Of a stretch of DNA of 64,000 nucleotides, positions 30,461 to 59,392 are shown piece after piece. The DNA comes from Bigelowiella natans CCMP2755 (lineage: Eukaryota; Protista; Cercozoa). The stretch lies in the NCBI GenBank assembly GCA_000320545.1, contig ADNK01003263.1, positions 1-64,000 of the forward strand, in the 5' to 3' direction. A model generated the notes under the pieces. It saw nothing but the letters and a program-made list of their open reading frames with translations. It ran no database searches and had not been told where the DNA came from. The position numbers and the translations under genes are program-made. Every line of letters begins with the position of its first letter. The stretch's first letter is position 1.

Positions 30461-30759
30461 TGAAGCGCATCGCGAGGCTCACTCTTCAAACAAATCTAGA
30501 AATAGCAGCAAATGTAGAAATGGCCTCGATGTTGTCAGCTTTGCTCGTTGCAAATGTCATTTTGCTCAAGCATTTCCCAGTGTTGATGATCAACATGCTA
30601 GCATGAGAATCATGAGTTCTGGTCTGTTGCTGTTGCACAAATTCTAGAATTCTTGCCAGTGACGACAAAAAACAGGGTGGAGGTGTAGTGGTCCGCACGG
30701 GTCTAGAGGTGTAGCTGCACTTGCGTGCGCAGGCTAGCAGGGCTACGTGTACGCATGCG

Positions 30760-32158
30760 TGGCAACCTAGCAACGGTGACCAGATTGAGTTGCGGGGGCA
30801 CGCTGCTAGCAAAGTCTGTGTTGCTTGTCGGCTTGCAAATTGTGAGCATTGCAGCAATGCATTTCGATCAACATCAAGACATTCCGGCGAGAGCTGAAAT
30901 TTTGGACTTGTGGACACATTGATGACCTGCTAGCCTAGACGACACGCAGCTAGCTAGCTAGAGCTAGAGAGTTTGCATGTTGATCAGCTACTGAACCATG
31001 CTAGCATGCGGATCGAATGGGTCAGGTCTCGACAAGCAAAAGTGCACACGTGCATGTCCAGCTAGACATGTGCAATTGCAATGATTATGCATGCAATGCA
31101 ATGTGCCGTTGTTGTTGCTGAGTTATCACGTGTCTCACGCACCGCTAGACCGCTAGACCGGTGCTAGCGGTGTGCTGAGCTAGCCATTGCTAGCTAGCTA
31201 GCCAGCTAGCTGTCAGTGAGATGCACCCACGTGTTGCTTGCATGCGTGCATCACTCATAAATTGGGCGTGAACGCTCCAAGCTAGCAAGCTAGCAAGGTG
31301 TCAAGCGAGACCGCTGTCACACCGCTTCAGAATGACTTCCACAGCTAGACAGCATGGCTAGATGGCTAGATGGGCATCGCAGACGTGGACACACCTGATG
31401 ATCTCGCCTTGTGATCGATCAAAAGCCCTAGCCATAAGTGCGCGTCTGGACATGCCAGCATGCGTGTGCTCGATGTTTTCACGAAACCAAGCACAGGCAC
31501 AGCTAGACAGCTGGACAGGCACGCACGAGTCAAGCGGAAATTTTGCTAGGTTGGTCATGCACCTTGTGAGACAATGACAATGACAACGACAATTGCAATG
31601 ACAATGACTGGATGATGACAAACTGCACTTGTGAGACAATGACAATGATGACAAACTGCACTGCCAAAGTGTTGCAAGCTAGCAAGACACTTGGCAGTCC
31701 AGCAGTGCACGAAACGCTGTTCAGCTGTGCCTCGAACTAGCCAGCTAGCTCTGCCAGTCTGGTGAGGACTGACTGGTGAAGACCAGCAGGATTTTGAAAT
31801 TGGCACACTGGCCATTGTGGAGCAGTGTGACTAGCAGCAATGTGGTGGCGACGCAAAGCATCCACTCTGAGTGGGAACTTCCGAACAATGAGAACAATGA
31901 TGAAAAACCACACTTCCAAAGTGTGACAAGACACTTGCAATGTGCGAAATGCAGTGCCTCGAACTGGCTTCAGTGAGGACTGACTGGCAAACTAGCGGGG
32001 TTCGTGCAAATTGGCACGAACTGAACATTGAATGCATCACAACTAGAGCTAGCAGCCAAATGACGACGACGCAAAGCATCCATCCTGAGCAGGAATCTGT
32101 CGCGGGTGGCCCACGACGACAACGGAAAATGAGCTGTTCGTGGTTTGGGTCCTGTTTT
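30760..32158. other. TpA-depleted, CTAG-rich island
   Basis: 31437-32158 has 9 TA, all in CTAG. 30760-31436 has many CTAG and only a few other TA. Confidence 0.9.
31664..32095 (+). repeat. Degenerate tandem duplication (two units of ~200 bp)
   Basis: Shared anchors in the same order in both units: CCAAAGTGT..CAAGACACTTG, GTGCCTCGAACT, GTGAGGACTGACTGG, AAATTGGCAC, CTAGCAGC, CGACGCAAAGCATCCA. Confidence 0.75.
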
Positions 32159-32800: not shown

Positions 32801-33993
32801 ATGAAGATATTAGCCATCGCGATAATGCGGCACCAAGGTGAGGGTAAGGATCCCATCGGCCTGGCAAGAGTTGAAGATTTGTCTAACTTCAGGTTAACAA
32901 GTAGTATTTATTAGATTAGAGAGAGCGTTCCTACTTCAGTGAATGGATATCTAAACAATACGCTGTCGTATTGAGACATCGAATTTGTGTTTATGCATCT
33001 ATCCATGCTGTCGGGCGTTTGTCTGTCCGCCCATAGTTATTTCACGAGATCAACGATCCGGGAGCACTTGACATTTGCCATCAGAACGGTAAGTTTAGTA
33101 TACTTCATTTGGTGAAACTGTTACACGTTTCACCGGTTATTCCCTTATGGTGATTCTAAGTGCTCCACTCCTCAACTCTCAAGATGGAATATTTTCTACT
33201 GTTTTTAAAATCTAGCCGCATTGATCTTGATCATAAATTTAGTCCCTGCTATTATTATTATTATTACTATTATTATTATTATGATATTATTCAGGTGGCA
33301 CAACGGACCAAACCTGGTTTTAGACAAACTGTGGGGTTAAAAGACATCGAATTCGTGTGCCATGTAAGTACAATAAAAATTAAAAACTATATTCACACAC
33401 AATAAAGTGAATCCTGGAATCTCCCTTTGTTTCCTGTTATTACATGATAGCATGCATATTTCATCCTCACCGCCGCTGGTTGCACGTTCACGACACATTG
33501 GTTATCTTGTCCAAGTAGCCGTCCGCTATTACTACCACCTCTACAGCTTAACGCTACCGTATCATCATCGTCGTCATCATCACAATCATCGTCAATGCAG
33601 GTTCACGTGAGATCCAACGGTATCTGTGGATTAGTTGTTTCAGACGAGGAATATCCGGTTAGGGTGGCTTTTTCGATGATTACTGATTTGGTAAATAAGT
33701 ATATCAAAGAGGAGTCTAAGTGGCAAGAAATAACGACCGATGCCGAAGCTTCACCCGATTTCATGAAAACTGCTTTAGAGAAGTATCAGGATCCAAAGGA
33801 AGCGGACAAAGTCCTTAAGATCCAACAGACGGTAGATGAGATAAAGAACATCATGCACAAGAACATCGATGATATTTTAAAACGTGGCGAGACCCTGGAT
33901 GCTCTAATGGAGAAATCGAACGATCTTTCCTCTACGTCAGTAGCCTTTTTCAAGACGGCAAAGAAGCAAAATCAATGTTGTAAGGCTTATTGA
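32801..33993 (+). CDS. YKT6: R-SNARE YKT6 (longin + v-SNARE coiled coil, C-terminal CC prenylation motif)
   Basis: Exons 32801-32892 (MKILAIAIMR...EDLSNF), 33037-33088 (SYFTRSTIREHLTFAIRT), 33295-33363 (VAQRTKPGFRQTV...VCH) and 33601-33993 (VHVRSNG...DEEYPVRVAF...YQDPKEADK...RGETLDALMEKSNDLS...CCKAY*); no TM helix. Confidence 0.95.
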
Positions 33994-34259: not shown

Positions 34260-34920
34260 TGATAGACATCGACAAGCAAATTGGTGCCATCTAGCCATAT
34301 GTCGCGTGACACGCTCTAGCGCTAGCTATCTGCGCTCTAATTCATGAGGTGTTCTCTCTGCTGCTGTACTTTCCACTTGCTCATCCTAAATTAGAAGATG
34401 TGGCATGCTGCATCGCTGCATGCATCATGCAGCTGCCAGCTGTGCAATGATGGAGCCTGGACTCAGAGGACAAGTGCTAGCTAGCTAGATGTGGCTAGGT
34501 AGTGGCTGGTGGCTTCATCATTTTTCCCTACTAGCTGCGCATGCACCAGTTTAGCAGTATGGCGCCAGTCTAGCTAGCACTGTCAAGCTAGCAAGATGCG
34601 CTGAGCGTGCCCTTCACGTCATTGCTGCAGTCTTGAGCATGCCAGCTAGCCAGCATGGGCCGACTTGTGATCACACTCACGTCACATTGCCCAGCTTAGC
34701 CAGCGATACAATCATGTTGCGCAAACGAACTAGCAAATGTGTCGTCATCGTCTAATTGTGGTGTACGCTTTCAAAGATGCCGCAATCCGATTCTGTCGCG
34801 CTCGCGCCAACGCAATCAGATCACGTCACTCAAGTGACGCCATCACCTGACAGATTGCGCATGTTCATGTACACGCTCTTGCTAGCTAGCTAGCTTGGTT
34901 ACTTTCATCATGCAACTCGG
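34260..34920. other. Partially TpA-depleted CTAG-rich island
   Basis: GCTAGCTAGCTAG arrays at ~34477 and ~34881 and many single CTAG. Residual TA sites are often CTA-N or N-TAG. Confidence 0.75.
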
Positions 34921-41093: not shown

Positions 41094-41622
41094 AATTGGT
41101 CTGATAGCATTGGCTTTGAGGTGTGAGCAGCTTACAAAATATGCAGCTGAGAGCTAAAATACTCCAGAAAATTCCAGAAAAGGCAAAAATGCAATCCAAT
41201 ATGTTCAAATATGTTCTACATCATCTAATGCACATGAAAATTACAATGCATAATTAGGGTCCCTATTATCGAAGATTTGAGAGAAGTTCTGTATTATAGT
41301 GGAAAAATGATTGGTCGCATGCAAGTAAATCTAGTTGAATTTTTCGAAAATGCCAACTGCCTCCCCACCAGATGATCTTCTCGTGGGTTGAGCGATTTTG
41401 CAACAATTATCATGCTCAACAAGTCCAATTTTACAATGGAAAGGCCTATACTTTTACTTGTGGGCTCCGAGCCACCGATAGTGTCGGGTGTCTCGTCGTC
41501 GCTCGAGATATTTTCAAAAGCCAGTCTTGCGGATGTTTGAAGTTTTCATGGTGATATTTTCAGAAACGTCGAGCTATTACATTGTCGTAACAAAAGATTT
41601 AAATGTGTTTTTCAGTGAGTTA

Positions 41623-42920
41623 CATTCTCTCTTTTGGGATTCATGTTTGAAATGACATCGATGCACTGTGACGTGGCTCTCCACGCACCAGCACGTCGCA
41701 TCTCCAAACCGCGTGGACCAGTTTCAGGTCACAAAAAAGTGGGACAGAGGAAGTTGGAAGTTCCAGCGGTTTTCAACGTTCATCAAAGTTGGATGTTCCA
41801 AATCCATGCAAATCCAGGAAACAAATCCTGACACAGGTGAATCAGCGTGTCCCGTGCTCGTGGTCTTCTCAACCGCTGCAATGAATCTTCCTTTCTTTGT
41901 TTCCAAAAAACAAGTGCACATGCACAGTGTCCAACTTCGGGAAATTCGTCAATGTTCCAATGCTTCAATGCTCTCATTCGTCTAGTTCGTGCATTCGTTC
42001 ACGTCAACCACGAGCACGCCTCACGTGTCCTCTCTCACTTCTCTGGTTCTCTTTCAGAAACGTCTCCAAACTCTCAACGTCACCACTCGTCCTCCTCCGT
42101 TCTGGCGTTGTCCAAGCTTGGCAGCAGCACAAGTGCAAACCTTGTCAGAAAGTCGCAACGGTCGCAGATCGATCAATCCGGTTCGAAGCGCAAAGTCTCT
42201 GCGACGAGCCTGCCTCCAGTCTCCTCACATCACTTCCAACTCTTCTGCTGGTTTTGTGCACGTTCGAGTTTGGACCTGAGTGAATGGTGGTGAAAGTGCA
42301 GAAAAATCAAAGCAGCTAGGCAGGCTAGCAGGTCTGCAGGGAGATGACAGCCAGACGAGCTAGCGAGTGATCGATTTGGCGATCTCAAGATGTGGGTCCT
42401 CGTTCACGCACTGTGGAAACTCGCCAAACAAGCTGGCTAGCAAGTGCGTCCGTGATCCAGCTGCTTGTGATCGCACTTCGCTTGCGGTGAACGTGCACAC
42501 ACACACACACACACACACGCAGTGGGCTCCAGCCAGGCCAGCTAGCCAGCGCTAGTAGCGCCCTGCTAGCCTGCCGATCGGAATGAAGTGAGACAAACTA
42601 GCAAAGCGAACGTGCACACGCGGAACAGAGCACAACGTGCGTGCTGCAAGCAAGTGTCACTCGCAGTGTAGCAGGAGGTGGAAACTAGGAAAGCACTTCC
42701 CCAGTCCAGCACGTCTGAGCATCGCAGACACGCCTTTCCTTGCTTCGCTTCATGACCCTTTCAGGCTAGCAGGCTGCACCGCACACGACGATGTCCGACG
42801 CCCCCGCCATGTGGCGACGCACGCTAGCACGCAGAGATTCAGTGGCATCATTGTGAGCATCACACATCCATGCTGCAGCATGCTAGCATGCGGGTGCGCT
42901 CAACATGCACTCATTGCTGG
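41623..42920. other. TpA-depleted, CTAG-sparing island
   Basis: In ~1.3 kb, 13 CTAG and 2 GTAG are the only TA-containing sites found. Confidence 0.93.
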
Positions 42921-43080: not shown

Positions 43081-43722
43081 TCAACTAGTAGTGTTCTCTT
43101 CCATCCGCCACCCAAGGACTTCCATAGCCCACATTAACGATCTATGTTCATCCTCTTTCAAGAGCCGAATCGCATCCCTTACAGGTTTATCGAAATTCTG
43201 GAGGAAATTCTTGGTTGGAGGGTACGCAAGTTTGGCAAACGACCACAATGTAATCGATATATGATAAGAACTGAAATCATCTTGATGCCGTATTGCAGCA
43301 TTTTCGAGAATATGTATCATTCGACGTTTACTCGCTGGCATCCCTAAAATCGGAGATCTAGCAATTGACCACAACATACTAGAAATTGTTTGTGGTGTCC
43401 ATTTCGATTCCAAATCAACTGCTCTTTTATATAGCAACCGTATTATCTCCTCCTCTAGATCGGCAGACTTGCTTATGATACTACTACTACTACTACTACC
43501 ACTACCACCGACTTCGCTACTTGAAGCATGCTGTCTGCTTATGCTAAATGTGACAGCACGTGTGAGACGACCGACAGGATGTTGTGCCTAGTAAGAGGGA
43601 GAGGGGGAGGAAGGTAAGGGTGGATACATTGTGAACGCATCATAATACGTGTGTTCTCTTTTCCTCCAAGAGAACAATAAACACTATTATATGCGTATTA
43701 GGTTGTGAAAATCAAATATTAT

Positions 43723-43763
<41 letters not shown>

Positions 43764-46361
43764 TATGTAATATTTACATGTATATTATATTTTCATATAT
43801 ATTTATTTATTACATTGCAATATAGATTTAAGATTACGCATTTAAATAAATTAACAAAATAAATATCCACCAAAACATTTAGGACGCGCATGTGATATAT
43901 GATTTCTAAATCCTTCTACCATACTATGATATTCATTTGTTGCATGGAGATTAAGTTTACTACTACTACTACTACTACTACTACTACAACTTGGATACTA
44001 ATATTCCACTTACAAAGCGAGAAAGTGCCCAAAGCGCGTTGACCGTTCCTTGTAAATTTAGTAGGTTGTGTTTTCTCACAATTTGTTCTTTAAGAGCCTT
44101 CATAACACGTCCTTGGGGATGTTTTTTGAACTTTGAAAGAGCCCATAAGCAGTTTGCAACGCTCTTAAAACAAAACAATAATGGCGCAAAATAGCAAAGA
44201 ACAACAGGAAGATGACAAGAAAAATAAGATGAAAAAGAAGGAGATGATGATGATGATGATGATGATGGTATTATTATTAATAATAATAATATTATTAGTA
44301 TTATGATACTGGTATATGGACATGTAACATACTAAAAACATAATTTTTTTGCTTTATAGATTATCATCTAGATTTTGTTTAAATGTATACAAAATATCTA
44401 CAACACACACACACACACACACACACACACTCCCTTACGACACACAACACACACCTGTGCAGTAAATTCATGAGATGAATGGGCAATTCGTGCTTCCAAT
44501 GCCTTTTGCATGGCAGACGAAGGATTTATGGAGAGCTTTGCATATGACCATAAAATAATGGATATTGCTTGAGAGGAGAATCTATAACAATTTTGGTGCT
44601 CGATTGTACTCTCCAGATCCTCTAGAAAAACATCCATCGGTTTTTCGCCAAGCTGTGTCAACGACCACAAGATATTGGCAGTTCCCTGTGGCGTGCATGT
44701 ATTACTAAGAGCGATTGCTTTAAGTTGCAAAGCTTTTATCAATTTGTCACAGGGCTTATGTCTTATGCTGGCAAAGGCCCACAATGTATTGGAAACGGCC
44801 TGAGCATTAAACTTTCCAACATGCTTTAAAGTGGCCTTTTCGAGAGCATCTAAAAGTCGTGGTTCAGGAGGTGCTAACGATGATGACGACGACGATGATG
44901 ATGATAAGGATGATGATGAGATTATGTTGTGATAATTATTGTTATCATTATCATCAACAAAACCACCAGCAACAGCAACAGCCACAGCAACAGCAGAGCT
45001 GTCTTCTCCCGCTCTCTTGCGACTCTCCAACTTTGCCAATGACCACAACATACTCGCAATACTTTGCGGGGCCTTAAAAGTAGTAATCTGTCCGTTATCC
45101 ACAACAACGAACAAACGAAGAAAATGGATGAATATATTGTACAAATATACTACATTTGCATTAATAATATGCTAAAAGCAGCGAAGCAGAAAACGATAAA
45201 ACAGAGAGAGAGAGGAGGGGGGAGGGGCAAAGTTGCGAGAAAAGACAAGAGAAGAATAAAAAGAGAGAACGAGAATGAAGGCACAGTAAGAGAAAATGAA
45301 TGAAAAAAAGAGGAGAAACAACGTATTAGTAGTGAGCAAACAAGTGAATAGATAATAGAGAGAACGATGTTCAATAACAACATTGGACGTCTTCTACTGC
45401 AACTACTACTACTACTAATACTAATACTAATACTATCAATCACCACCATACCCTGCCTCCCATGGTTCAAAAACGCTTGCTTTCGTCATCAAATAAATAA
45501 ATTAATAATATGTTCTACTACGTACTACTATTATTACAGGCGGCGTACCTTATTTAATGTTACTTTCTGCATCTTTTGATGAAACTGCAGAGATGGACGA
45601 TGCTGTAACTTAACAAACGCCCACAGTGTGTTTGAGATGTCTTGAGGGTTATATTCATCTAGTATTTGTAGACCTGCCTCCTGAGAAAGAGAGCGAGAGA
45701 GAGGGAGAATTCAATATAATAATGATTAGTAGGACAGACATTTACTATTGCTGATGTTATCATTGATCGGTGTTACTTACTACTACTTACTTGCATATGA
45801 TATCATGAAACAGCAACTACTATTACTACTGCCACTACCACCACCGCCACCACCACTACTACTACCTCAATGAGCGACATGGAAGAGTGCTCAAGTCGAA
45901 ATCTCAAAGATGCAAAACTCCACAACATATTGGAAAGAGAATGCGCATTTGTGGTATTTCTTCTCAAAACGAGGTTTTTCTCAATTTCCTTCAATAAGTC
46001 AACTTCTGATCTGTTTGTTGCAAAAAAAAGAAGAATTAAGCGATTGAATAATTACAATCTTTACAGTACTACGTATCTCACCACCTGGTGATGATGATGA
46101 TGATTATCATCGTTATCATCAACAAACTAAACTACTGCAATTATTACCTTAGGCGCAGACGGACCATCGACCATAGAATGTTAGCCATACTTTGTGGATG
46201 TGCCTCACTTAGTTTGCCGTGTGCAAGATATAGATACTCAGCCAATAATTTCGGTTTTATCCGAACATATCCAGACTTGGCTTCATTTGATGAATGTGTA
46301 GACAACACATCTAGACGTCCAAATGCCCATATTGCTGATGCTAGACCTGAGAAACGAATAA

Positions 46362-46393
<32 letters not shown>

Positions 46394-46445
46394 AATGTGT
46401 AACTTGTTTGTTTGATTAATGACGAATCCATAGCATGAAACAATG

Positions 46446-46480
<35 letters not shown>

Positions 46481-48171
46481 TAATGCTACCTCTTGCATCC
46501 AAGTCTTTGCTGATATCTTCAAGATGAGAAATTAATCTCCCAAATTGCCGTTGAATACGGTACGTGTGCTACATAAATACATATAACATACACATTTGAG
46601 CTACATACATACATATATACATACGCATTTGAACATAAGAAGATAGCAGAAAGAACAAATATTTAAATGACTGCATAGTAGTAGTCGCGAAATAGACAAC
46701 GATACTTGTTGACCCTCTCATTGCGCAACAATCTACACATTATTATTAGTATCATCATCATACTAAGGACAGCTACATAATGATGATTTATCCCATCTAG
46801 TTATTAGTATAGTACCGTATCATGAAGGAACATCGGACTTGTCTTTGCTATCGTATGAATGCATGTGACGATGTTTATGGAACTGAGTCGATGATCTTTA
46901 TTCACCATCTCTAATGCTTCAAGAGCCTCTTCAGCACTCTTTGATTCCTTGTAACACGTAGTAAAAGCGAACATTGGAAAGAAAGAGTGGGGGGAGGGAG
47001 GAAGTGTAGGACAAGAATATTTATTAATTAGAACCACTGTACTGGCTACTGACACGCAATAAGCAATAACAAAAGATAAGCGAAGGTGTGTGTGTGTGTG
47101 TGTGTCTGTGTGGAAGAGGTACAATAATGAAATAAAAGAAATAAACTAAAAATAATCTTAACAAATTGAAGCAAAGAAAAATAATGTAAAATAAATATAG
47201 AGTAGAGAAACAGAAGAAAGAGGGGCAATAGAAGAGATCGCCAGTAGCAGCAATCAATACAATAACATAAATGGTACAATATAATATTTCTACGTAACTA
47301 CCTGTAATAATTGATTTGTGCCCTTCCTACTGCTACTACTACTACTCTGCTGCCGTCGTTGATGAGGCTGCCACCGTGTTTCTTTAATCATACTACTACT
47401 ACTACTACTACAACTTGTACTACTACTACTACTACTACTAACATTATAGTCATGATCTACTACTATAGGCCAATTGTCAGGTTTCGATAGTTTATTTTGA
47501 GTACAGGAGGAGGAGGAGGAATGATTGGTTTGGGATATTATTCTACTGCTGTAATTGTTGTTCGTGGAGGAATCGGTGGTCACCAGAGGAGATTTTGCTG
47601 CTGAACTCGTAGTATCATCACCCACTACCGAGGAGGAGGAGATTGCAGCACCGACTTGTGTCATCGAGAATATTCTTCTTTTTTTGTTGTTCAATAAGCT
47701 CTCTTTTCGAAATAATTGCAAGAGCATTAATCGTGAAGTAGTAGGAGTAGTTGCAGATGTAGAAGTAGTAGTAGGGCAAGTTTGAGAACCCAGCAGTAGG
47801 CTTGAATAGATCTTATTATTACTCATGCTGCCACTTCTGCGGCTAAAGAGAAGACTGCTTGATTTCGACGTTATTTGGATGTTAGTTCTCATCAGATTAG
47901 CACGTGTGTGACGGTTAGATGCTATTCGAGATGCTGAATGCGCCGATCCGCTACCAATGAATGAAATCCAACATAACCCTATCAGTACAACACGAACAAA
48001 CGAACGATGACGAGAGACAATACTGCATCTTCTTCCCCGCACTATGATGCTCATATCATCCTTATTGTGTTTGATTGATGATGACGTAGTCGAAGAAGAG
48101 GAAGAATCGCGGTGGGATGATAATGTGGTGGAAATGGAGGACGCCTTCTCTTGAATCACACCCTCTGTCAT
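43081..48171 (-). CDS. Octotricopeptide/heptatricopeptide-type helical repeat protein (organellar RNA-binding type), multi-exon
   Basis: About 12 repeats of ~37-38 aa with a (P)QxxxNxLW(S/A)xxxL core: GLASAIWAFGRL, PQSMANILWSMVRL, AHSLSNMLWSFASL, PQDISNTLWAFVKL, PQSIASMLWSLAKL, AQAVSNTLWAFASI, PQGTANILWSLTQL, SQAISIILWSYAKL, VANCLWALSKF, LQGTVNALWALSRF, PQTISSMLWSIARS, SYHISITLWSFAKL. First exon 48171-~47302 has a hydrophobic stretch followed by an S/T/R-rich region. Confidence 0.85.
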
Positions 48172-49561: not shown

Positions 49562-50870
49562 TTGCTGACAGACTGAATGAATGAATGACCACCGTGGTAA
49601 ATAAGGCTGCGGGACGTGATACGCACATACACACATAAGTGCTATATGTATACAGCATGTTTATTTGATTATCACCCAAAACAATTACTATCATCTATAA
49701 CTGTTTGAAAAATGAGTCATCTTTGCTTTTAAATCCTTCTCACTACTACTCTTTAGGAAAATAGTGGTGCTGGCAGGGAAAAGAAGAAGAAGAAGAAGAA
49801 GAAGAAGAAGAAGAAGAAGAAACAACGGCAACATGAAGATGATCAGAGTGACAGTGAAGAGGGTGGTAGCGACGAGGAAGCATTTATATTCGACGTGTTT
49901 GAATCGACGTCGTCATCTTCAAACAACAAAATTAGTAGCATCGTGCAGCAGCAGCCAGTTGTTGACAAGATTCAGCGACGATTGCTAGCAAAGGAAACAC
50001 GTAGGCGTAACCTAGCATTTAAGTCAGAGAAGAAGCAAATAAATTATCAAGAAGGTGTGGACAACAGCAAAAACGATTTGAAAGAAGATGATAGCAGTGT
50101 AGATGAAGATGAGGACGATGAAGATGAAGAAGGGGAGGAGGAAGAAGAGAGTGACGATGATGATGATGACGAAGAGGATGAGGATGCAGAAAAAGATGAA
50201 GATATGAAGTACAAGAGAAAGGATTATAGTGGAAAAGAGGGAACAGAGATCTCATCCTCCGACTCTAAGTCTTTATCATCTAAGAGGCGGGAGAAGAGAA
50301 CTCATAATAAAGAGGAGCAGACGAGAAAATACAGCAAAACGAATACAGCAGTGGAAGTGAAAGATTTTGCTCATCTAAAGCTTTCACGGTTGTGATAAAT
50401 TATACCTTGGTGAATTCAATGATTGTGCAACTAATTTCTGGCTGAAACCATGATTGTTATCTCGCCATCACCATCATTGATATCATCATCATCATCATCA
50501 TCGATACCACTATCGTGTTACTTACTACTACTACTACTACTACTACTACTTACCACGAACATATTAATCGGTTTCGTAATCATGGCTGCCACCTCTACCT
50601 TTTACTAGTAGGGCTTTGAGCTTTCAAAGCTTTTATAACAGATGCATTGTCTCTTCTACTCTCTCTCTCTCCCTTCCCCCCCAAATACCGCTTCTTCTTC
50701 TTCTTCTCTATGATTACCATCGGCGGGATGTAATAATAGGCCATTACTTAAAGCCGTGAGAGAGATGGGGTTCGTGTGTCCTACCCCCGTGCAAGCTCGG
50801 TCAATACCTCCTGCTCTTATGGGAAAAGATCTGCTGGTACACACTACATTGAAAAAGAAGAAGAAGAAGA

Positions 50871-50907
<37 letters not shown>

Positions 50908-53471
50908 GGCTCGAGATACGCATCATTTGTCCGTGGAAAAATGTTTGCCTCTCTCTAAAATAATAATGACTTCTATTACTACTAATAACCATTCGATGAT
51001 GGTGATGATGATGATGATTCTTCTTCTTCTTCACGTTGTGATGATCGTAGTAGTAGTAGTAGTAGTAGCAGCAGCAGCAGCATATAAATCTTGTCTAGAT
51101 GTGGTGCCATCATCATCATTATCATCATCGTGAAAGGGATTCATTTATTCATTCATTCATTCATTCAAACAATCCTCAGTTATATAATTTACCATATTAC
51201 TGTCAACATCATCATCTGAACCAGCTTCTCTCTCCTTTAAGGTCAATGCACAGACAGGATCCGGGAAAACGGCAGCGTTTCTACTGCCATGCTTAGAGAG
51301 GTTGCTATATCGGTCAAGGCGCATTCCAATTTCAAGGGTTCTTGTCGTCACACCAACAAGAGAATTAGCGCAACAAATCGTCCAAATGGGACAACAGCTA
51401 GCAAAACACACAGATGTACGATACTGTTTAGTGGTGGGAGGTTTATCCCTAAATGCACAAGCTGTTGCACTTAGAAGTAGTCCTGATATTGTCGTAGCTA
51501 CGCCGGGAAGGCTTATAGATCATTTAAGAAATAGCGTATCCGTGGATCTCGATGGTTTAGAAATCTTGATTCTCGATGAAGCAGATCGTCTATTGGATAT
51601 GGGTTTCAAAGACGAGTTGGAAGAAGTCCTAAGATTGTGCCCAAGAGGGCGACAGACAATGCTGTTCTCAGCAACACTGAGCGAAAATGTGACAGAACTT
51701 GTGGACTTGTCCCTTCGAGAGCCAGTGCGAATATCTGTGGACTCAGTGTCTGTCGTAGACACTCTTCAGCAAGAATTTATACGCATTCGCTCACAAAATG
51801 ATAATCAAAAATACAGGTGCTATTATTCATACACTATGATGTAGAAATGTTTTGCAGCAAGCAAGTAGATCTGTACTAACACAAGCGGAAATATGTTGTC
51901 ATAAAACTACGGCCAATTATGATATTCGTAATAACATTTTGTCTATATATCATCGTGTATATAATAATAGTAATAGTAATAGTAATAATAATAATAATGA
52001 TAATAATAATAATAATAGGGAGGCAGTCGTATTGGCATTATGCAAGCGATCTTTCTCCAAAGGCGGATGTATCGTATTTTTGCCTTCAAAGAAGCTGGCT
52101 CATAGGCTGATGATAATTTTCGGTTTTGCATCTTTGAAAGCTGCTGAACTACATGGACACCTCACACAGCAACAAAGGTTGGATGCTTTGGAGTTATTCC
52201 ATAGAAGTAAAGTAGATTTTCTCCTGGCAACCGATCTTGCTGCAAGAGGACTCGATATAAAAAAAGTGCATGCCGTGATAAACTACAGCATGCCCCGACA
52301 AGTAGCTAGGTACATTCATAGGGTTGGAAGAACAGCAAGAGCGGGCCGTAAGGGGGTAAGATAATAGAGAAACCAATCGTCAACATTTCATTGCAGTTGC
52401 CTCCATAATCTCCATCTTATTTCACCTTGACTACTTTATGCGTTATTGCCAAATGCTTAACTCTCAGCAGTTGAATGTTTATTATTTTTATTATCCTGGT
52501 GGATACACACTGATGATCCCTTTTCCATATCCTCATCAAAACAAACCAATAACGTATTATAATACAGCAGCTACTGTCTGCAGCAGTATTCATCATTTCT
52601 TCATATTCAGGTATCGGTGACATTAGTTGGAGAAAATGGCCGCAAAAATCTAAAGTCAGTTGTAAAAATGGCAAAGGGGGCTGGAACTACAAAAAGCAGG
52701 CAAGTGCCTTTCAAAGTAATCAGCAAATGGAGAGACAAAATTGGAGAAATGGAGGAAGATATTCGCGCAGTGTTGGATATGGAGTGGGAAGAGAAGCAAT
52801 TGCGTATAGCAGAAATGGAAACGAACAAAGGGATGAATATCATTCACTATCAAGATGAAATTCAGCGCCGTCCTCCACGCACTTGGTTTCAGACCGAAAA
52901 AGCTAAAAAAAAAGCAAAAGAGATCTCGAAAGCAGCAATTTCAGCCATTAGCGACGATAACGATGACGGGGCTCGTAATGATATTGACACAGCACCTCTT
53001 TCAAAGGGTAGTCAACAGAGTCAACGTACCAAAAAAAAAAACCCTCTCCAAGGCCTCTCACGTTCAAAAAAACGGAAAAAACTTGCCAGGATGCAAGAAG
53101 AAAAGGATCGTAGGGATTATGAACAGCGAATTGAGGAAATAGGAGGCACAAAGAAAAAATCGCCGCATCAGCGCATGATGGAAGCTGTACAAAAAGCAAA
53201 ATTTAAACGTCGCGAAACAGCGGTGCAAAAGGAGGGAAAGCAGCTGAATCATTCTAAGGGCGGTGCCAATGATCACATCGCTATGAATGCTGCAGTGCGC
53301 AAAGCGAAAAAGCGTTATAGATCAAAGGATAATGAAGACGATGCTGATAGCTTTGCACGCAGATATGGTAAGATAAAGGAGAAACCTCAGAGAGAAGAGA
53401 ATAAAAAAGCATTTGCAAACAAATCACGGAAAGCTTTCAAGAGCAAGAGCAGATACAAAAGGCGAAAGTAG
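49280..53471 (+). CDS. DDX27: DEAD-box RNA helicase DDX27/Drs1 (60S biogenesis), multi-exon
   Basis: ATG 49280 (MGDDFIRTL), acidic N-terminus, Q motif (GFVCPTPVQ), AQTGSGKTAAF, PTRELA, TPGR, DEAD, SAT, ARGLD and HRVGRTAR. Drs1-type C-terminal RPPRTWFQTEK and AFKSKSRYKRRK*. Confidence 0.93.
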
Positions 53472-54221
53472 AGCCAGTTAACCTTCCGATCATACAAATT
53501 TGTAGCAGTATATGACTTGAGGAGCGGTAGTGTCATCACCAAGTAAGCATGCTTCGGCATTCTTCCGCTCAAGCATCACAATTCATGTCGTAAAGAAGAG
53601 TCGTTGGCTCCGTGTAGCTAATTACATTGACGATACATGAAATTACGTGCGTGTCCATGCGGCTGTCCAGCGATGCTTGAATGGACCATGCTAACGTTAC
53701 TAGGCTTAGTCCTCTGCCAAGCACATCTAGACATGCCACATCATGAGCCAAAAGCAGCTGCTCAAGCACAGACTAGATGGACTTTCATTTGCAATTCGTC
53801 GATGTGATCTGACTGGTGAGCGGCCACAGCTAGACAGCTTAAACATGTCGAGGCCAAACCCGGTCACAAATGGGTTTCGCATGTTTGCAGAGCGCTTCAA
53901 GGGCATTTTTTGCGTGCAATCCGTCCGCAACCGTCAAAAAACACTTTCTGAGTCGGCGGAATGTCGAAAAAATGAAAAAATTCAAAATCTCAGCTCAAAA
54001 ACCTCGATTTTTTGACCCCTCACAACGTGCATTGCGGAGAAAATTCTCATGATTTTGGTCAGAGATGCAGCCGACGCGCGTGTGCAATGCGAGTAAGTGA
54101 GGCCGTGTCCGTTTGCAATGGAACTAGCTTCACAGACAGCTGGAAGCGCGATGCTCAAGTGTCAAATTTGATCGAGACAGTGACGCGTTGAAACTTTGAA
54201 ATTGGGGCATCACTGCCACAT

Positions 54222-54361
54222 GCATGCACAGCCACAGGACACACATGACGTGTCATGAGTGCAGAGGGGTTTTGACGCATTGGAGACTGGTTGGAGCATG
54301 CACAGCCACAGGACACACATGACGTGTCATGAGGGCAGAGGGGTTTTGACGCATTGGAGAC
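54222..54361 (+). repeat. Direct repeat, 2 x 66 bp (period 74, one mismatch), each with an internal palindrome CATGAC-GT-GTCATG
   Basis: GCATGCACAGCCACAGGACACACATGACGTGTCATGAG(T/G)GCAGAGGGGTTTTGACGCATTGGAGAC at 54222-54287 and 54296-54361. Confidence 0.92.
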
Positions 54362-55338
54362 ACTGCGCAGCTGGTTTTCAGTCAAAAAGATTGGTCGTGT
54401 GCAGCCGCGCGCGCAGAACTTTGGTTCAAAACGCCGAGGCGTGGCGCGCACAAGCGGCGCGTGGTGCGCGGGGCAGCGCGATCGAGCAGCTAGAAGTGGC
54501 ACCTCGCTAGCTCGGGGGGGGGGGGGGGAATGCGAATGAAAAAATTCAACTGTGCCAAAAGTTTTCAAACGACCCCTGCTAGCCTGCTTGACATCTGAAT
54601 CGAGTTTGCGCGAAAAAAACGCGTCAATTTTTTTTTTCAATTTTCGTGAAGTTGTGACCGGTTTGGCCTGGATGTGAAACTTGAAGCTCAAACATCACAA
54701 TGCACCCAGTGGACACGTGCAGTGCCAGAGTGGTGCAGTGGACACGCGTGGGAAATTGTTGTGGATTTTGAATCAATGCTCTGTTCAATGCAGTTCAATG
54801 TTCCCCACAGCTTTGACGATGCCATTTGCAAATTGCTTCTCTGCCTTGAATTTGAAATGCACGCCAGCACGTTGACAATCTGCGATGTGGGGGTTCTGCA
54901 ATTTGGTGCGGATTCTGACTTTTTTTCTGAGAAATCATGTGCAGTCTCAGGCGGTGGCGCCTGCGCCGCGCGAGCACAACGTCACAAGCAACATGGAGCC
55001 CCATGAGGCTGCACAGCGCACGCACGTGCGCGAACGCAGAGCAGTCAGGATGGACATTTCACTCAATTCTGTGTCAGTCAGATGTCAGCAAATGCATCAA
55101 TGACAGAGTTGAAAGGTGCATGCAATCAAATGATTCAGCAATTGGAGAAGGCTGTGGCGTGATTTTTTGAACAATGGTGAATTCATTGTGCATTTGGTGA
55201 TGGAATGATGAACAATTGTGGCAAGGCAAGGTGGCAAATGCAGACCATGCACACGTTCTTTGCAACGTGTGATCTGTTCATCCGCACGTTTCTGGATTCA
55301 CTTGCCCACGTCTGTTCATCCGCACACTTTGCCCACAA

Positions 55339-56742
55339 TCATTCGGAATCGGTGCTGCTGCTGTCGCTGCTAGCAAGCTCATCGCCAACCTCACGCACTG
55401 CTGCGTCAATCGCGTGGTCTCTTTCCGATGTTTTCATGAGCTTGTTCTTCATCGTCATTGCAATGGTCTTGTGAAGTCTTTTCCGCTTGCGCGCCTTTCG
55501 CTTCATCTTGCGGTGAACCTGTTTGCGCAACTGCTGCCTGGTCTGTGGATGCCCTCCGCTGCAACAGCACTTGATGCAGCGACCGCATCCGATGCAGCAC
55601 TTCTTCTTCTTGTGATGGCAGACCTGCGGCGGCGGCGAGTCATTTGTGCTGTCGTCCGATCCCGACTCAAAGCCATCGACATTGTGTGCAATCAGCTGTG
55701 GAGCGCTTTTGCCGCCTCGATCGACGGGCATCACCACCGCGAGCATTGGGCGGCCCCGCCTTGCTGACCATTGCCTTCGATGTGCCCGGCTTGGGCGCTG
55801 GGACTGTCTGCTCATTCGCGTTTTCTGTTGATTGCGTCGATTGTGCTTCCATGGCTGCCACTCGCGCCAGCAGTTGCTTCATCACGCGCGCATTCTCAGC
55901 CGCACGCTCATTCGCTTCCGCTAGCTTCCTCTCGCACTTCGCCTTGATGCGCGCGGCGGCTTCGTGCTCATCCGCCTCACTCTCAGTGATGTCGTGTGCC
56001 GATTCCGACTTTCGGCTCGCCGCAGCTGCTGCCCCGCGACGCCGTGCAGCCCTTCCTTTTTTTGACCTCCTTGTGTTGCGTCCGCCATTCCTCCTCTTCT
56101 TGTTCTTCTGCTCTGACGGCTGGTGGACCACCAAGATTGGATCATTCTCGCTGTCGCCCTCGCCAGGCGCGCTTTCCACCTTCTCTGTCGCGTCCTGTTG
56201 ACTGGCGGCTGCTGCGCCCGGCTTGCGCAGCTCGTCCACCCAATTTCTCAGGGCGTCGTCCACAATGCTCAGGCAGCTGCCAGACACAAATGCGGGGGGC
56301 ACAGCTGGGTTGCAATCACCTTGGACACCGGCGCCAGTTTCCTGAGCTTCCCATTTGGAGACAGCATGGCAACTTGCAGGTGGGAACTGGACCTGAACGT
56401 CTTTTTTCGATCCACAAGAACCAGTCCCATCACCCATTTGTTTCTGACATTGCCCTTCGCCATCAGCGCCTTGGTCGGCTTCAAGTGGACGATTTGGTGT
56501 GTTGAAATTGATGCAGCGTTCTCCACGTGTGCCACGCCGGCAAACAGAACGCACGTCCCCACTGGCCACCCGCCATTGCCATCGTGCAACCGAATCGTGC
56601 GACTTCTTCTGTCACATGACTTGCAGTGTGCCAGCACTTTGCCTTCTGCACTGTCTGTCCATGCAAGAGCGCATGTCGCAGACATTGCGGATGATGCACA
56701 TGCCTTGCGAGGCTTAGGAGCACATGAGTGCACGCTTTGCAT
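55339..56742 (-). pseudogene. Intronless, GC-rich, frameshifted ORF relic (possible mobile-element or viral gene) inside a TpA-depleted island
   Basis: Three overlapping minus-strand ORFs (56742-56269, 56569-55667, 55815-55339) join via apparent frameshifts near 56295 (G6 run) and ~55760. The joined product has a coiled-coil-like segment and basic patches, and lacks Tyr and microsatellites. Confidence 0.5.
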
Positions 56743-57340
56743 TCAACATTCACTTTGGTGCACGTGTGGAAAACGCACATGTCAAATTGGTGGGTACGTC
56801 TGCAGAAATTGCTTCCACATCGCAAAAAATTTTCAGAAAAATTTTCGGCGTCTGCACTATTCCACAGATCATGTGTAGACACTGCAACCTGCAATGTGCA
56901 TTTTGTCTAGCTAGATAGCTAGATGGGTCTAGAGGTCTGAGCTAGCTCTATCTACTAGTCTAGAGCTGAGGTGGCGTTGCAGGACGTTATCTCATCACAC
57001 ATCTGTTAGGCATCAGGGTGTTGTGTAATCGACCTGTATAAGCCCGCAGTGCCATCTAGCCATGACTGGCACACGTGTTTGCACATGTGACATTGCTTAG
57101 ATTGGGTTAACTAGTTAACCCCAGCAACGAGCTACAGCGTTACATGCCAGGTGCTGTTCATGTGCGTCTGATCCGCTGCTGCTGTGCAAGATTAGCCAGG
57201 ATGGTGCATGCATAGCGGTACGTTTATGCATGATGACAATAGACACATAATTCCCTACATAATTATTAATAAATATATTTCATGAACTTTTGCCCCATTT
57301 ATCATTTATAATTATCATTTTTAGTAAATTCTGAGAAACA

Positions 57341-58653
57341 CTAGAAGACGTATGCAAGGCAATCAAAAAACCTATAGAGTAGGTAGATGAAAGCAATTGC
57401 GACACATACCACAACGGCAGCCCCGTACCTGGGATACGAATGGATATTTTAGTACACACTAGTAAATGCGGTGGTTTAATATTAGGTTTTACCATGCTGC
57501 GCCCTCCACCTGGAAATCTTGTAAGTCATAGTACAGAAATACCACCAGCACCATTGTGAAAAAAGCCACCCAAAATATCCAAGAGGTTGTTAAGGCCATC
57601 TTTCGGTAGAATTCAGCAGCAGCAACTGCTTTATCTATTATAAATTTCACAAGTTCATTTTGTGTAGTTGTAAATTCAAGGATGTCATGTCAATTTAGTA
57701 GTGAAATACCGTAATCTTCGAATTTCGAATACTGGATTTTACCACCTTTCAACCCAATATCCTCCCTATCTTGCATAGACCTTGATGGGAAAGTTAATTT
57801 TAATAAAGTACATGAGTCAAATTCAGGATCAACAATTCATATGTGCACGTAAACATACATGCACACACCACTCTTCGTTAAAACATTGAATTTTTATGCA
57901 ATGAACAAAAAATGACATTAAATCGGCCTCCCAATTGATAATTACCCGATGTCTGGCACAGAATTCCAACGTTCGCTTTCGACACCATCGGAGTTCTTTG
58001 TACATTCTGTGCAATGCAAGAGAACAAAGGCATTCTCTTAAGATACATTAAGCAGAATTCACAACAAAATGTTATTCGGTTTTGCAAGCATCTAGTCGTG
58101 CTAGTTTATCTCAAGGATAAACAAAAAGATCAGCCAACCACTTTCGTCCACCATCATCGTGGATCAGGCAATCGTTTGTTGTCAGAAGTGTTGTGTGCAG
58201 ATATTGTGTTGTTTGTTGTCGCGATAAAGGATTCTCATTCATTCTCATTCCTTCTTATTGATACAGGCATTGTTTCTGTCGGAACCACACCTGCCAATCA
58301 TCCAAAATTAATTCCCACTGATTTACACCATAGCGACAACGTGTGTGCTCCAAACCCACTACAAAGAAAAGGCGGGAAAATGAATCGTTTATGATGAATC
58401 AAAATTGGCATGAAGAATACTTTCTATGTTGTCGTAGTCCACAATAGATATGGATTTCACATGAAATGTGTGAAAATGCTCCGAATGTAGAACTCATAAC
58501 TTTCAACCTGCCCCAAATAATCCAAATAAGCTCTCGAGTATAGCAGGCCGCGTCGCTCCGACGGGTATGGCTTCAACCTTTCGTTGTTACAGTAGTTGAG
58601 ATGATGTGAAAAAGTAAGAATGAATCTATGAGAAGAAACACGATGTGTTCCAT
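57341..58653 (-). CDS. Possible small multi-exon hypothetical protein with C-terminal hydrophobic segments
   Basis: Splice-bounded coding-like pieces (VEAIPVGATRPAILESLFGLFGA; MYKELRWCRKRTLEFCARHR; LLDILGGFFTMVLVVFLYYD; YGAAVVVCVAIAFIYLLYRFF). No recognised homology and no full model assembled. Confidence 0.3.
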
Positions 58654-58759
58654 GCTTTTCTCGATAACACCAATAAAATACACGCTTACAGAAAGCTATT
58701 TTGAAATACTGACATCATTTAATGCTTATGGATAGGAAGAAGCACTTTCTCTGAAAAGA

Positions 58760-59392
58760 ATGGAATTGCCATCGTCGATTTCGACTTCGACCCGGTCTTC
58801 GTCGTCGTCCTCCTCCTTTCGGCATGTCAGAATTGGCCAGTTGATACGGCTACTGGTGTCCTCTGTGACTAATGTTAAAGAACAAAGGGTTAGACACAAA
58901 GAAAAAAAACAAGTTGAAGAAAGCTGCAATAGTGACAGTCTAGAGAATATTCCGAGAGGGACAAGAGAGAGAAAAAACAAGATGAAAAAAAAATTCTCAT
59001 AATTAGATCTTACCTTCTGTTTGGAGTCGGGATCGAGCGATAGCTTGAGACACCACTGAGACTCCTTGTACCGTATATTATTTGTGTGTATTCTACGCAC
59101 ATGAGAAATAGAGAGAGGGGGAAATAGAGATAATGGCGTGTACATGTTGATATTCGCACGTTATGAAAACAATATCTGGAATGTTATGTGATTTTTTGTC
59201 ACATTTTTTGTTGGTTAGGATGGGGGAAGATATCACTCCATGGTGAGTTACGTCAATCGACTCATCACCAGCTTTGCACACCTTCCAAGAATCAGGGACG
59301 AGTTCCAAATCAAACGAAACATCGTGACCAAACGTACTTACTAGCGAATATGTACTCATAATTATATACATATATAACAGTAAAACAAAAAA

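Follow-up and report, generated by a model that had tools for sequence, protein, structure and literature searches.

A silent, frameshifted orphan gene of Bigelowiella natans whose tyrosine codons were most likely erased by TpA hypermutation

The minus strand of a 64,000-nt stretch of the Bigelowiella natans CCMP2755 genome (GenBank assembly GCA_000320545.1, contig ADNK01003263.1, positions 1 to 64,000; hereafter the window) carries, at 55339-56742, a frameshifted reading frame that has no Tyr codon at all. It is very probable that this is a silent orphan gene, present in two copies in B. natans, whose DNA was driven to near-saturation by the TpA to TpG/CpA hypermutation of this species, such that Tyr codons became codons for Cys and His. 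In the course of events that we propose, the published TpA mutator of the species would have acted on this block, and it would have been aimed at repeated or foreign DNA, as suggested by the coincidence of the block's edges with the edges of multi-copy DNA. Most of the changes, together with one of two frameshifts, would have come first; the segment would then have been copied, and both copies would have drifted since. The chemistry could be either deamination of A, which is the proposal of a preprint on the species, or damage to thymine in the opposite strand, and these two would look the same in the sequence.

Loss of TpA from a multi-copy block

The TpA-erased block extends over 53848-56860. 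Within 53841-56790, TpA occurs 8 times versus 156 expected (2000 mononucleotide shuffles; mean 156, s.d. 9.9, minimum 118), while CA/TG is found at 1.55 and CpG at 0.95 of expectation. The observed and expected TpA counts in the four sub-parts of the block are 5/48.5, 0/43.3, 3/57.1 and 2/10.0, with 3 versus 57 expected for the reading frame at 55339-56742, and they are near normal in the flanks (21/26.8 on the left and 28/25.4 on the right). The non-coding stretch 54677-55338 has no TpA and is erased as fully as the ORF. Because the loss occurred at the DNA level, Tyr is absent from every frame on both strands. The stop codons TAA and TAG have been erased as well, so that ORF length is inflated and several long ORFs overlap on both strands. 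The TpA edges match the ends of the single-copy contigs, which stop at 53877 and resume at 56824; the erased DNA is therefore the multi-copy DNA.

Three other parts of the window, all intergenic, are TpA-poor and TG/CA-rich with the same signature as the block. These are 41622-42920, in which 13 of 15 TpA lie in the tetramer CTAG and which is unrelated in sequence to the block, 30516-32158 (37 of 46 TpA in CTAG) and the weaker 34270-34900 (16 of 31). No homology was found among the four islands, the block included, beyond low-complexity CTAG runs.

The original prediction had favoured a mutational process over simple composition as the cause of the Tyr loss. This is supported by an unmutated homologue whose Tyr residues face Cys and His of the relic (see below) and by the fact that such a process has been measured directly in the same species (Mettrop et al., bioRxiv 10.64898/2026.01.13.699255). 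In the mutation-accumulation lines of that preprint, two integrated viral regions mutate about 1000 times faster than the rest of the genome, and 230 of the 231 mutations in them are A to G or T to C, all on TpA; these actively mutating regions are single-copy viral inserts, and an A-deaminase is proposed as the agent. The preprint also reports 124 genomic clusters of TpA-poor, CpA/TpG-rich windows, using cut-offs per window of rho TpA of at most 0.43 and CpA+TpG of at least 1.52. Two 1-kb tiles of the present block pass both cut-offs (54001-55000 with 0.09 and 1.56; 55001-56000 with 0.04 and 1.63), and the tile 56001-57000 (0.29 and 1.51) misses the CpA+TpG cut-off by 0.01. The block may thus be one of the 124 clusters.

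With the viral hypermutated regions of the preprint, our block shares the species, the TpA to TpG/CpA change, the TpA-poor, CpA/TpG-rich composition and an unannotated gene model. However, erasure is near-complete here (rho TpA 0.05, versus 0.45 in the giant-virus insert of the preprint), and the target is a 3-kb multi-copy segment without a viral marker, whereas the active regions of the preprint are single-copy viral inserts, which counts against repeat-targeting. The block is also polarised at the protein level by an outside homologue, and it shows a survival of CTAG, a tetramer with no occurrence in the main text of the preprint (bioRxiv 10.64898/2026.01.13.699255).

The reading frame and its relatives

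The relic is read on the minus strand in three pieces. Piece 1 (56296-56742) is N-terminal, with a predicted beta-rich domain, and its homology-supported part covers approximately 56365-56646. Piece 2 (55721-56299) is low-complexity, basic and Glu/Ala-rich, and piece 3 (55339-55719) contains a Cys/His cluster (55549-55620, minus strand; 8 Cys and 3 His in 24 codons) and the TGA stop. The peptides quoted in the original prediction are present in the minus-strand translations where it had placed them, and its description of a relic without Tyr but with Cys and His holds, the cause being at the DNA level. Summed over the three pieces, each read separately (56296-56742, 55721-56293 and 55342-55719), the 466 codons include 0 Tyr, 17 Cys and 17 His. 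At the rates of the host exons of the window (Tyr 1.8%, Cys 1.0%, His 2.5%; 1855 residues, with roughly hand-set limits), a relic of this length should contain about 8 Tyr, 5 Cys and 12 His, and the probability of finding no Tyr in the relic at 2% Tyr is about 8e-5.

Only three relatives emerged when 5.8 billion and 1.84 billion proteins were searched. Two of these are JGI Bigna1 models, both ab initio and both spanning the frameshifts by predicted introns. Model 91563 (P0002) is the relic locus itself, with all exons matching the window at 100%, and model 74499 (P0001) is a second genomic copy, with 1 Tyr in 595 residues. The third, P0003, has 99 residues and comes from an ENA contig of 890 nt; it is the sole unmutated homologue, with 83 aligned residues, and none was found for piece 2 or for the Cys cluster of piece 3. 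Piece 1 matches model 74499 at 76% identity (E 3.7e-26) and P0003 at 44% identity (E 3.3e-07), while 166 of 191 aligned residues in piece 2 and 106 of 121 in piece 3 are identical to model 74499.

The original prediction implied that Tyr positions of homologues would be Cys or His in the relic, and this was borne out at both positions where it is testable. In the protein alignment, Tyr22 of P0003 faces a Cys codon, TGT (56614-56616), and Tyr32 faces a His codon, CAC (56584-56586). With 9 Cys/His among the 83 aligned window residues, the chance of both Tyr facing Cys or His is about 0.011. The remaining seven of these nine residues face I, A, L, H, F, E and Q of P0003, and none of the nine faces Arg. 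That these seven face residues other than Tyr, and that the comparison has a single unmutated homologue to draw on, count against our main reading.

Between the two genomic copies there are 26 aligned Cys/His pairs: 12 Cys/Cys, 12 His/His and two in which the relic has His and the second copy Cys, at 56497-56499 (where P0003 has Phe) and 55994-55996. One Cys/Arg pair is found at 55599. As 24 of the 26 pairs agree, most of the Cys/His changes are likely to have preceded the copying of the segment to this place, judging from the sequence. This pattern is unlike independent editing at each locus and to that extent counts against our main reading. The gene had been thought to be edited after insertion; that it was mutated stands, but most of the changes probably predate its arrival here. 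Both sites with Tyr in P0003 are also concordant between the two copies, so concordance is no proof that a residue is genuine.

A second set of contigs over the ORF region differs from the window at 29 of 348 and 38 of 325 letters (8-12% of bases). The changes listed for it (a loss of 12 at 55690, a gain of 3 behind 56024, and differences at 55882-55893 and 56266) agree with model 74499, and the contig set can therefore be taken as this copy. P0003 keeps the first frame down to approximately 56370, and the second-copy contig over 56271-56595 has 14 gap letters with a net length change of 0, which places frameshift 1 in both copies. It lies in the interval 56295-56370 (minus strand), near a run of six C; a frameshift near 56295 had been predicted, which is compatible with this interval and is refined by it. 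The predicted frameshift near 55760, however, is instead an insertion of 4 bases at 55717-55720, located by alignment to model 74499 and present in this copy only. The second-copy contig there has 348 versus 337 letters with 43 gap letters, which fits 24+12+4+3. As contigs of the sequencing runs X1 and X11 with identical letters span 55717-55720, this second frameshift is not an assembly error.

A frame test by codon positions in 56309-56389 (first-position changes 5 of 8) was uninformative, because the copies diverge approximately neutrally and piece 2 has the same bias (13 of 25). The Met at 56742 is not supported as a start, as homology only begins near 56646. A 41-nt GT..AG intron at 56400-56440, taken from model 74499, was rejected, as the P0003 alignment runs straight through it.

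Transcription and divergence of the copies

Four runs, including X1, X11, X17 and X21, were compared with 50600-58000. Depth over the ORF is about twice that of single-copy DNA. RNA is nearly absent from the ORF: its depth there is 0-0.15 in X21, whose coverage is thin (100 reads on 7.4 kb, with about 6% of the data used), against up to 5.2 on the neighbouring genes, and 0-0.63 in X17, against up to 119. Short contigs were seen inside the erased block at 55156-55307 (RNA-like run X17, depth 10) and over 54094-54287; these may stem from a repeat copy that is transcribed at a low level, or from carried-over DNA.

Of the 29 base differences between the copies in 55541-55877, amino-acid changes require no fewer than 23, compared with a neutral 75% (P 0.67, by a rough count). 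With RNA near zero and copies that diverge approximately neutrally, the relic is a pseudogene.

Variants between copies were examined at 39 of 238 rows, omitting one row in a host gene. At 56266-56267, among the variants listed, the copies show a TG-versus-CA double difference (X11), and at 54094 the window has TA where most other copies have CA (2071 of 2213 depth in X1). These sites and the two Tyr of P0003, few as they are, give the direction of change as TpA to TpG/CpA. There are at least 2 sites in these 39 rows where another copy would have TA. At least 8 differences are of the type CG versus TG/CA (54141, 54225, 54246, 54255, 54380, 54105, 54184 and 55885), which indicates that CpG transitions also separate the copies; these could yield single His/Cys swaps, but not the loss of TpA. 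That such differences exist without an overall CpG depletion could mean either that CpG decay is balanced by gain or that there are steps from TG/CA to CG.

Neighbouring DNA and the origin of the segment

The left part of the block, 53848-54676, is a MITE-like, non-coding repeat of about 830 bp, delimited by its terminal inverted repeats and by depth. Its arms (53844-53869 and 54652-54676) match in 22 of 26 columns, loose contig ends occur at both of its limits, 53848 and 54676, and depth suggests about 10-17 copies (1195-2306 versus approximately 137-150 for single-copy DNA in X1). It also contains a tandem duplication on the plus strand (54222-54361; two 66-nt copies, 74 nt apart). It resembles a MITE in size, in its terminal inverted repeats, in having no recognisable ORF (the longest one has no Pfam match) and in its many copies with diverging flanks. 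TG is found on both sides of its inner arms, which would fit an erased TA target duplication, although the exact ends are uncertain by about 4 bases. The four bases beyond the inner arms are CATG on the left and TGTG on the right; both could be derived from a TATA target by TpA erasure. No inverted ends were detected around the ORF segment, in the right part of the block.

Both neighbours of the block are expressed host genes. On the left, the last exon of a DEAD-box helicase gene (52563-53471, plus strand) retains its TpA; the gene is identified by Pfam DEAD on the upstream exon (E 1.7e-42), by RNA depth and by a splice at 52354-52610. On the right, the gene at 57244-59322 (minus strand) is fused to the relic in model 91563. 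An X17 RNA contig has the introns of this gene spliced, stops at 57244 and does not run on into the relic, and the fusion is likely a prediction artefact. Between this gene and the block lies a single-copy flank (56861-57243) in which TpA is not depleted, 9 of 28 TpA are in CTAG and CpG is at 0.50 of expectation, which suggests a second process, or a feature of the element, that generates CTAG. Elsewhere in the window, 43081-47145 (minus strand) encodes a repetitive helical protein with repeats like ANxLWALAKL, which we take to resemble organellar RNA-binding proteins of the RAP/octotricopeptide type, and 33451-33993 has Longin and synaptobrevin Pfam domains, as in a YKT6-like SNARE with a CCxxx-type tail.

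The relic could not be assigned to a family by any of the searches. There was no match at the curated Pfam cut-off (16 and 3 proteins searched), PHROGs gave only matches of E 0.012 to piece 3, and there were no matches in PDB sequences at E<=5 or in Rfam. In the ESM Atlas, residues 170-300 of P0001 gave no usable feature match, and P0003 had a best score of 0.80 with all TM values below 0.5. AlphaFold on the three-row alignment returned an unusable model (pLDDT 36.6). No related DNA context was found in viral contigs, metagenome contigs or phages, and hallmark genes such as a transposase or a capsid gene did not turn up.

The original prediction took the gene to have come probably from a transposon or a virus. 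The two-copy state and the adjoining inverted-repeat element agree with a mobile origin, which we infer for the ORF from these two features, while Pfam, PHROGs, PDB, the ESM Atlas and viral and metagenome contigs offer no match. It is somewhat more likely than not that the segment moved together with a mobile element.

Alternative explanations

The pattern can practically be dismissed as a sequencing or assembly artefact. Frameshift 1 does lie near a run of six C, but the second copy bears the same signature, and 14 DNA runs contain 0.89-0.92 of the sampled words from 52500-58000; these runs may share the strain of the assembly, which has no bearing on the artefact question. Moreover, the X1 and X11 contigs listed have 0 letters differing from the window over 54647-55396 and 55541-55877, so that neither the TpA loss nor frameshift 2 can be an assembly error. 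Also very improbable is CpG decay of Arg codons (CGY to TGY/CAY) as the main source of the Cys/His excess, the TpA poverty being compositional. The CG versus TG/CA differences and the Cys/Arg pair at 55599 are what this process would leave, and it is a point against our main reading that a His/Cys swap is also obtainable from Arg CGY via CpG transitions. However, TpA stands at 5% of expectation, a loss beyond the reach of CpG decay; CpG in the block is at 0.95-0.97 of expectation and Arg is abundant; and at the sites discussed above, P0003 has Tyr at both testable ones and Arg at none of the nine.

Alternatively, the ORF could have belonged to a mobile element and stayed functional while purging TpA, its Tyr-free protein adapted to the mutator, with death only recently. 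With 8-12% of bases differing between the copies, the agreement of 24 of the 26 pairs of Cys/His would mean that the segment was already TpA-poor when copied, and long stretches are still open, but this openness is expected anyway after the erasure of TAA and TAG. With frameshift 1 common to both copies, a seemingly neutral divergence between them (amino-acid differences require 23 of the 29 changes) and non-coding DNA erased equally (0 TpA in 54677-55338), we consider this improbable. A narrower question is whether the Cys residues clustered near 55600 form a true motif for binding metal instead of being former Tyr, which would be compatible with the hypermutation of the block. The Cys at 55596, 55587, 55578 and 55566 are spaced CxxCxxCxxxC, as in iron-sulfur motifs of the ferredoxin type, and six Cys of the cluster are the same in both copies. 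In 4Fe-4S ferredoxins the motif is CxxCxxCxxxCP and usually occurs twice. Here the spacing is present once, there is no Pro after the last Cys and no second motif, and no Pfam Fer4 or zinc-finger match was obtained for the cluster at E<=1 or E<=5. Furthermore, the P0003-Tyr sites are equally concordant between copies, and the relic has no Tyr but 3.6 times as much Cys as the host. A metal-binding motif is thus possible but doubtful.

Survival of CTAG

The near-complete loss of TpA leaves one conspicuous remainder in the block. Six of its eight surviving TpA are in CTAG (6 versus 11.4 expected), while all other TpA amount to 2 in 2950 bp versus approximately 145 expected. When 500-bp tiles of the window were picked by TG/CA excess and GC only, which avoids circularity, 56 of 81 TpA were in CTAG in the 9 TG/CA-rich tiles, versus 143 of 4447 in the 119 tiles that remained; the figure was 26 of 247 for 12 GC-rich controls, a set that includes tiles touching islands. 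This tile test replaced a Fisher test (72/100 vs 130/4448) that was partly circular, since non-CTAG TpA had been used in setting the island limits. Among ten TpA context classes, CTAG is the only one whose sparing much extends the longest TpA-free run (2621 versus 793-873). In a comparison meant to tell which strand rule would spare CTAG, tetramer ratios of observed to expected are 1.05, 2.08 and 1.45 for CTGA, CTGC and CTGT versus 1.05, 1.40 and 1.10 for ATGG, GTGG and TTGG, but general GG depletion confounds these values. CTAG is also commoner than expected in the other three islands (up to 37 versus 6.4) and accounts for 9 of 28 TpA in the undepleted right flank, which means that CTAG is also generated or is intrinsic to the element, and counts against pure sparing.

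Repeat-induced point mutation (RIP) of ascomycete fungi, which the preprint names as well, changes C to T, mostly CpA to TpA, and so creates TpA. The block resembles RIP targets in its dense transitions in one dinucleotide context, in gene inactivation and possibly in a restriction to repeated DNA with sharp edges. It differs in losing TpA (observed/expected 0.05) where the C to T changes of RIP create it, with CpA at 1.55 and GC raised. RIP is confined to repeats, and the edges of the block here match multi-copy edges, but the active region of the preprint is single-copy.

We predict that CTAG survives, most simply, because the mutator obeys a flank rule that is strand-specific: if there were no editing when A is followed by G, only the palindrome CTAG would be left untouched on both strands. 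We lean slightly towards the view that the B. natans mutator strictly exempts CTAG, such that saturated blocks keep CTAG TpA at about half of expectation or more and other TpA at 1-2%. The cause would lie in the enzyme, as a flank rule (A then G, or T after C, being no substrate), or in a protective mark on CTAG, and the mutator would be a repeat-guided mirror image of RIP. In the literature we found no paper that joins CTAG, TpA, hypermutation and an alga. None of the viral methylation motifs in the available portion of PMC13196603 is CTAG, the available portion of PMC9998398 has one passage on DNMT6, and a term search of PMC5890265 returned no mention of Bigelowiella natans.

Implications

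The process itself has already been published for this species; what is new is the locus, and the survival of CTAG as one new clue to specificity. The locus probably shows the end state of the process, with near-complete erasure, sharp edges at multi-copy DNA and a target without a viral marker, and the outside homologue supplies polarity at the protein level. For annotation, Tyr-free, Cys/His-rich gene models of B. natans, for example 74499 and 91563, should be viewed with caution, including any with apparent zinc-finger or iron-sulfur motifs, since the erasure of stop and Tyr codons can produce such models artefactually. As a constraint on the responsible enzyme, the survival of CTAG is cheap and can be tested. 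If the exemption of CTAG is true, it would provide a fingerprint for singling out the DNA-editing enzyme and for mapping its targets.
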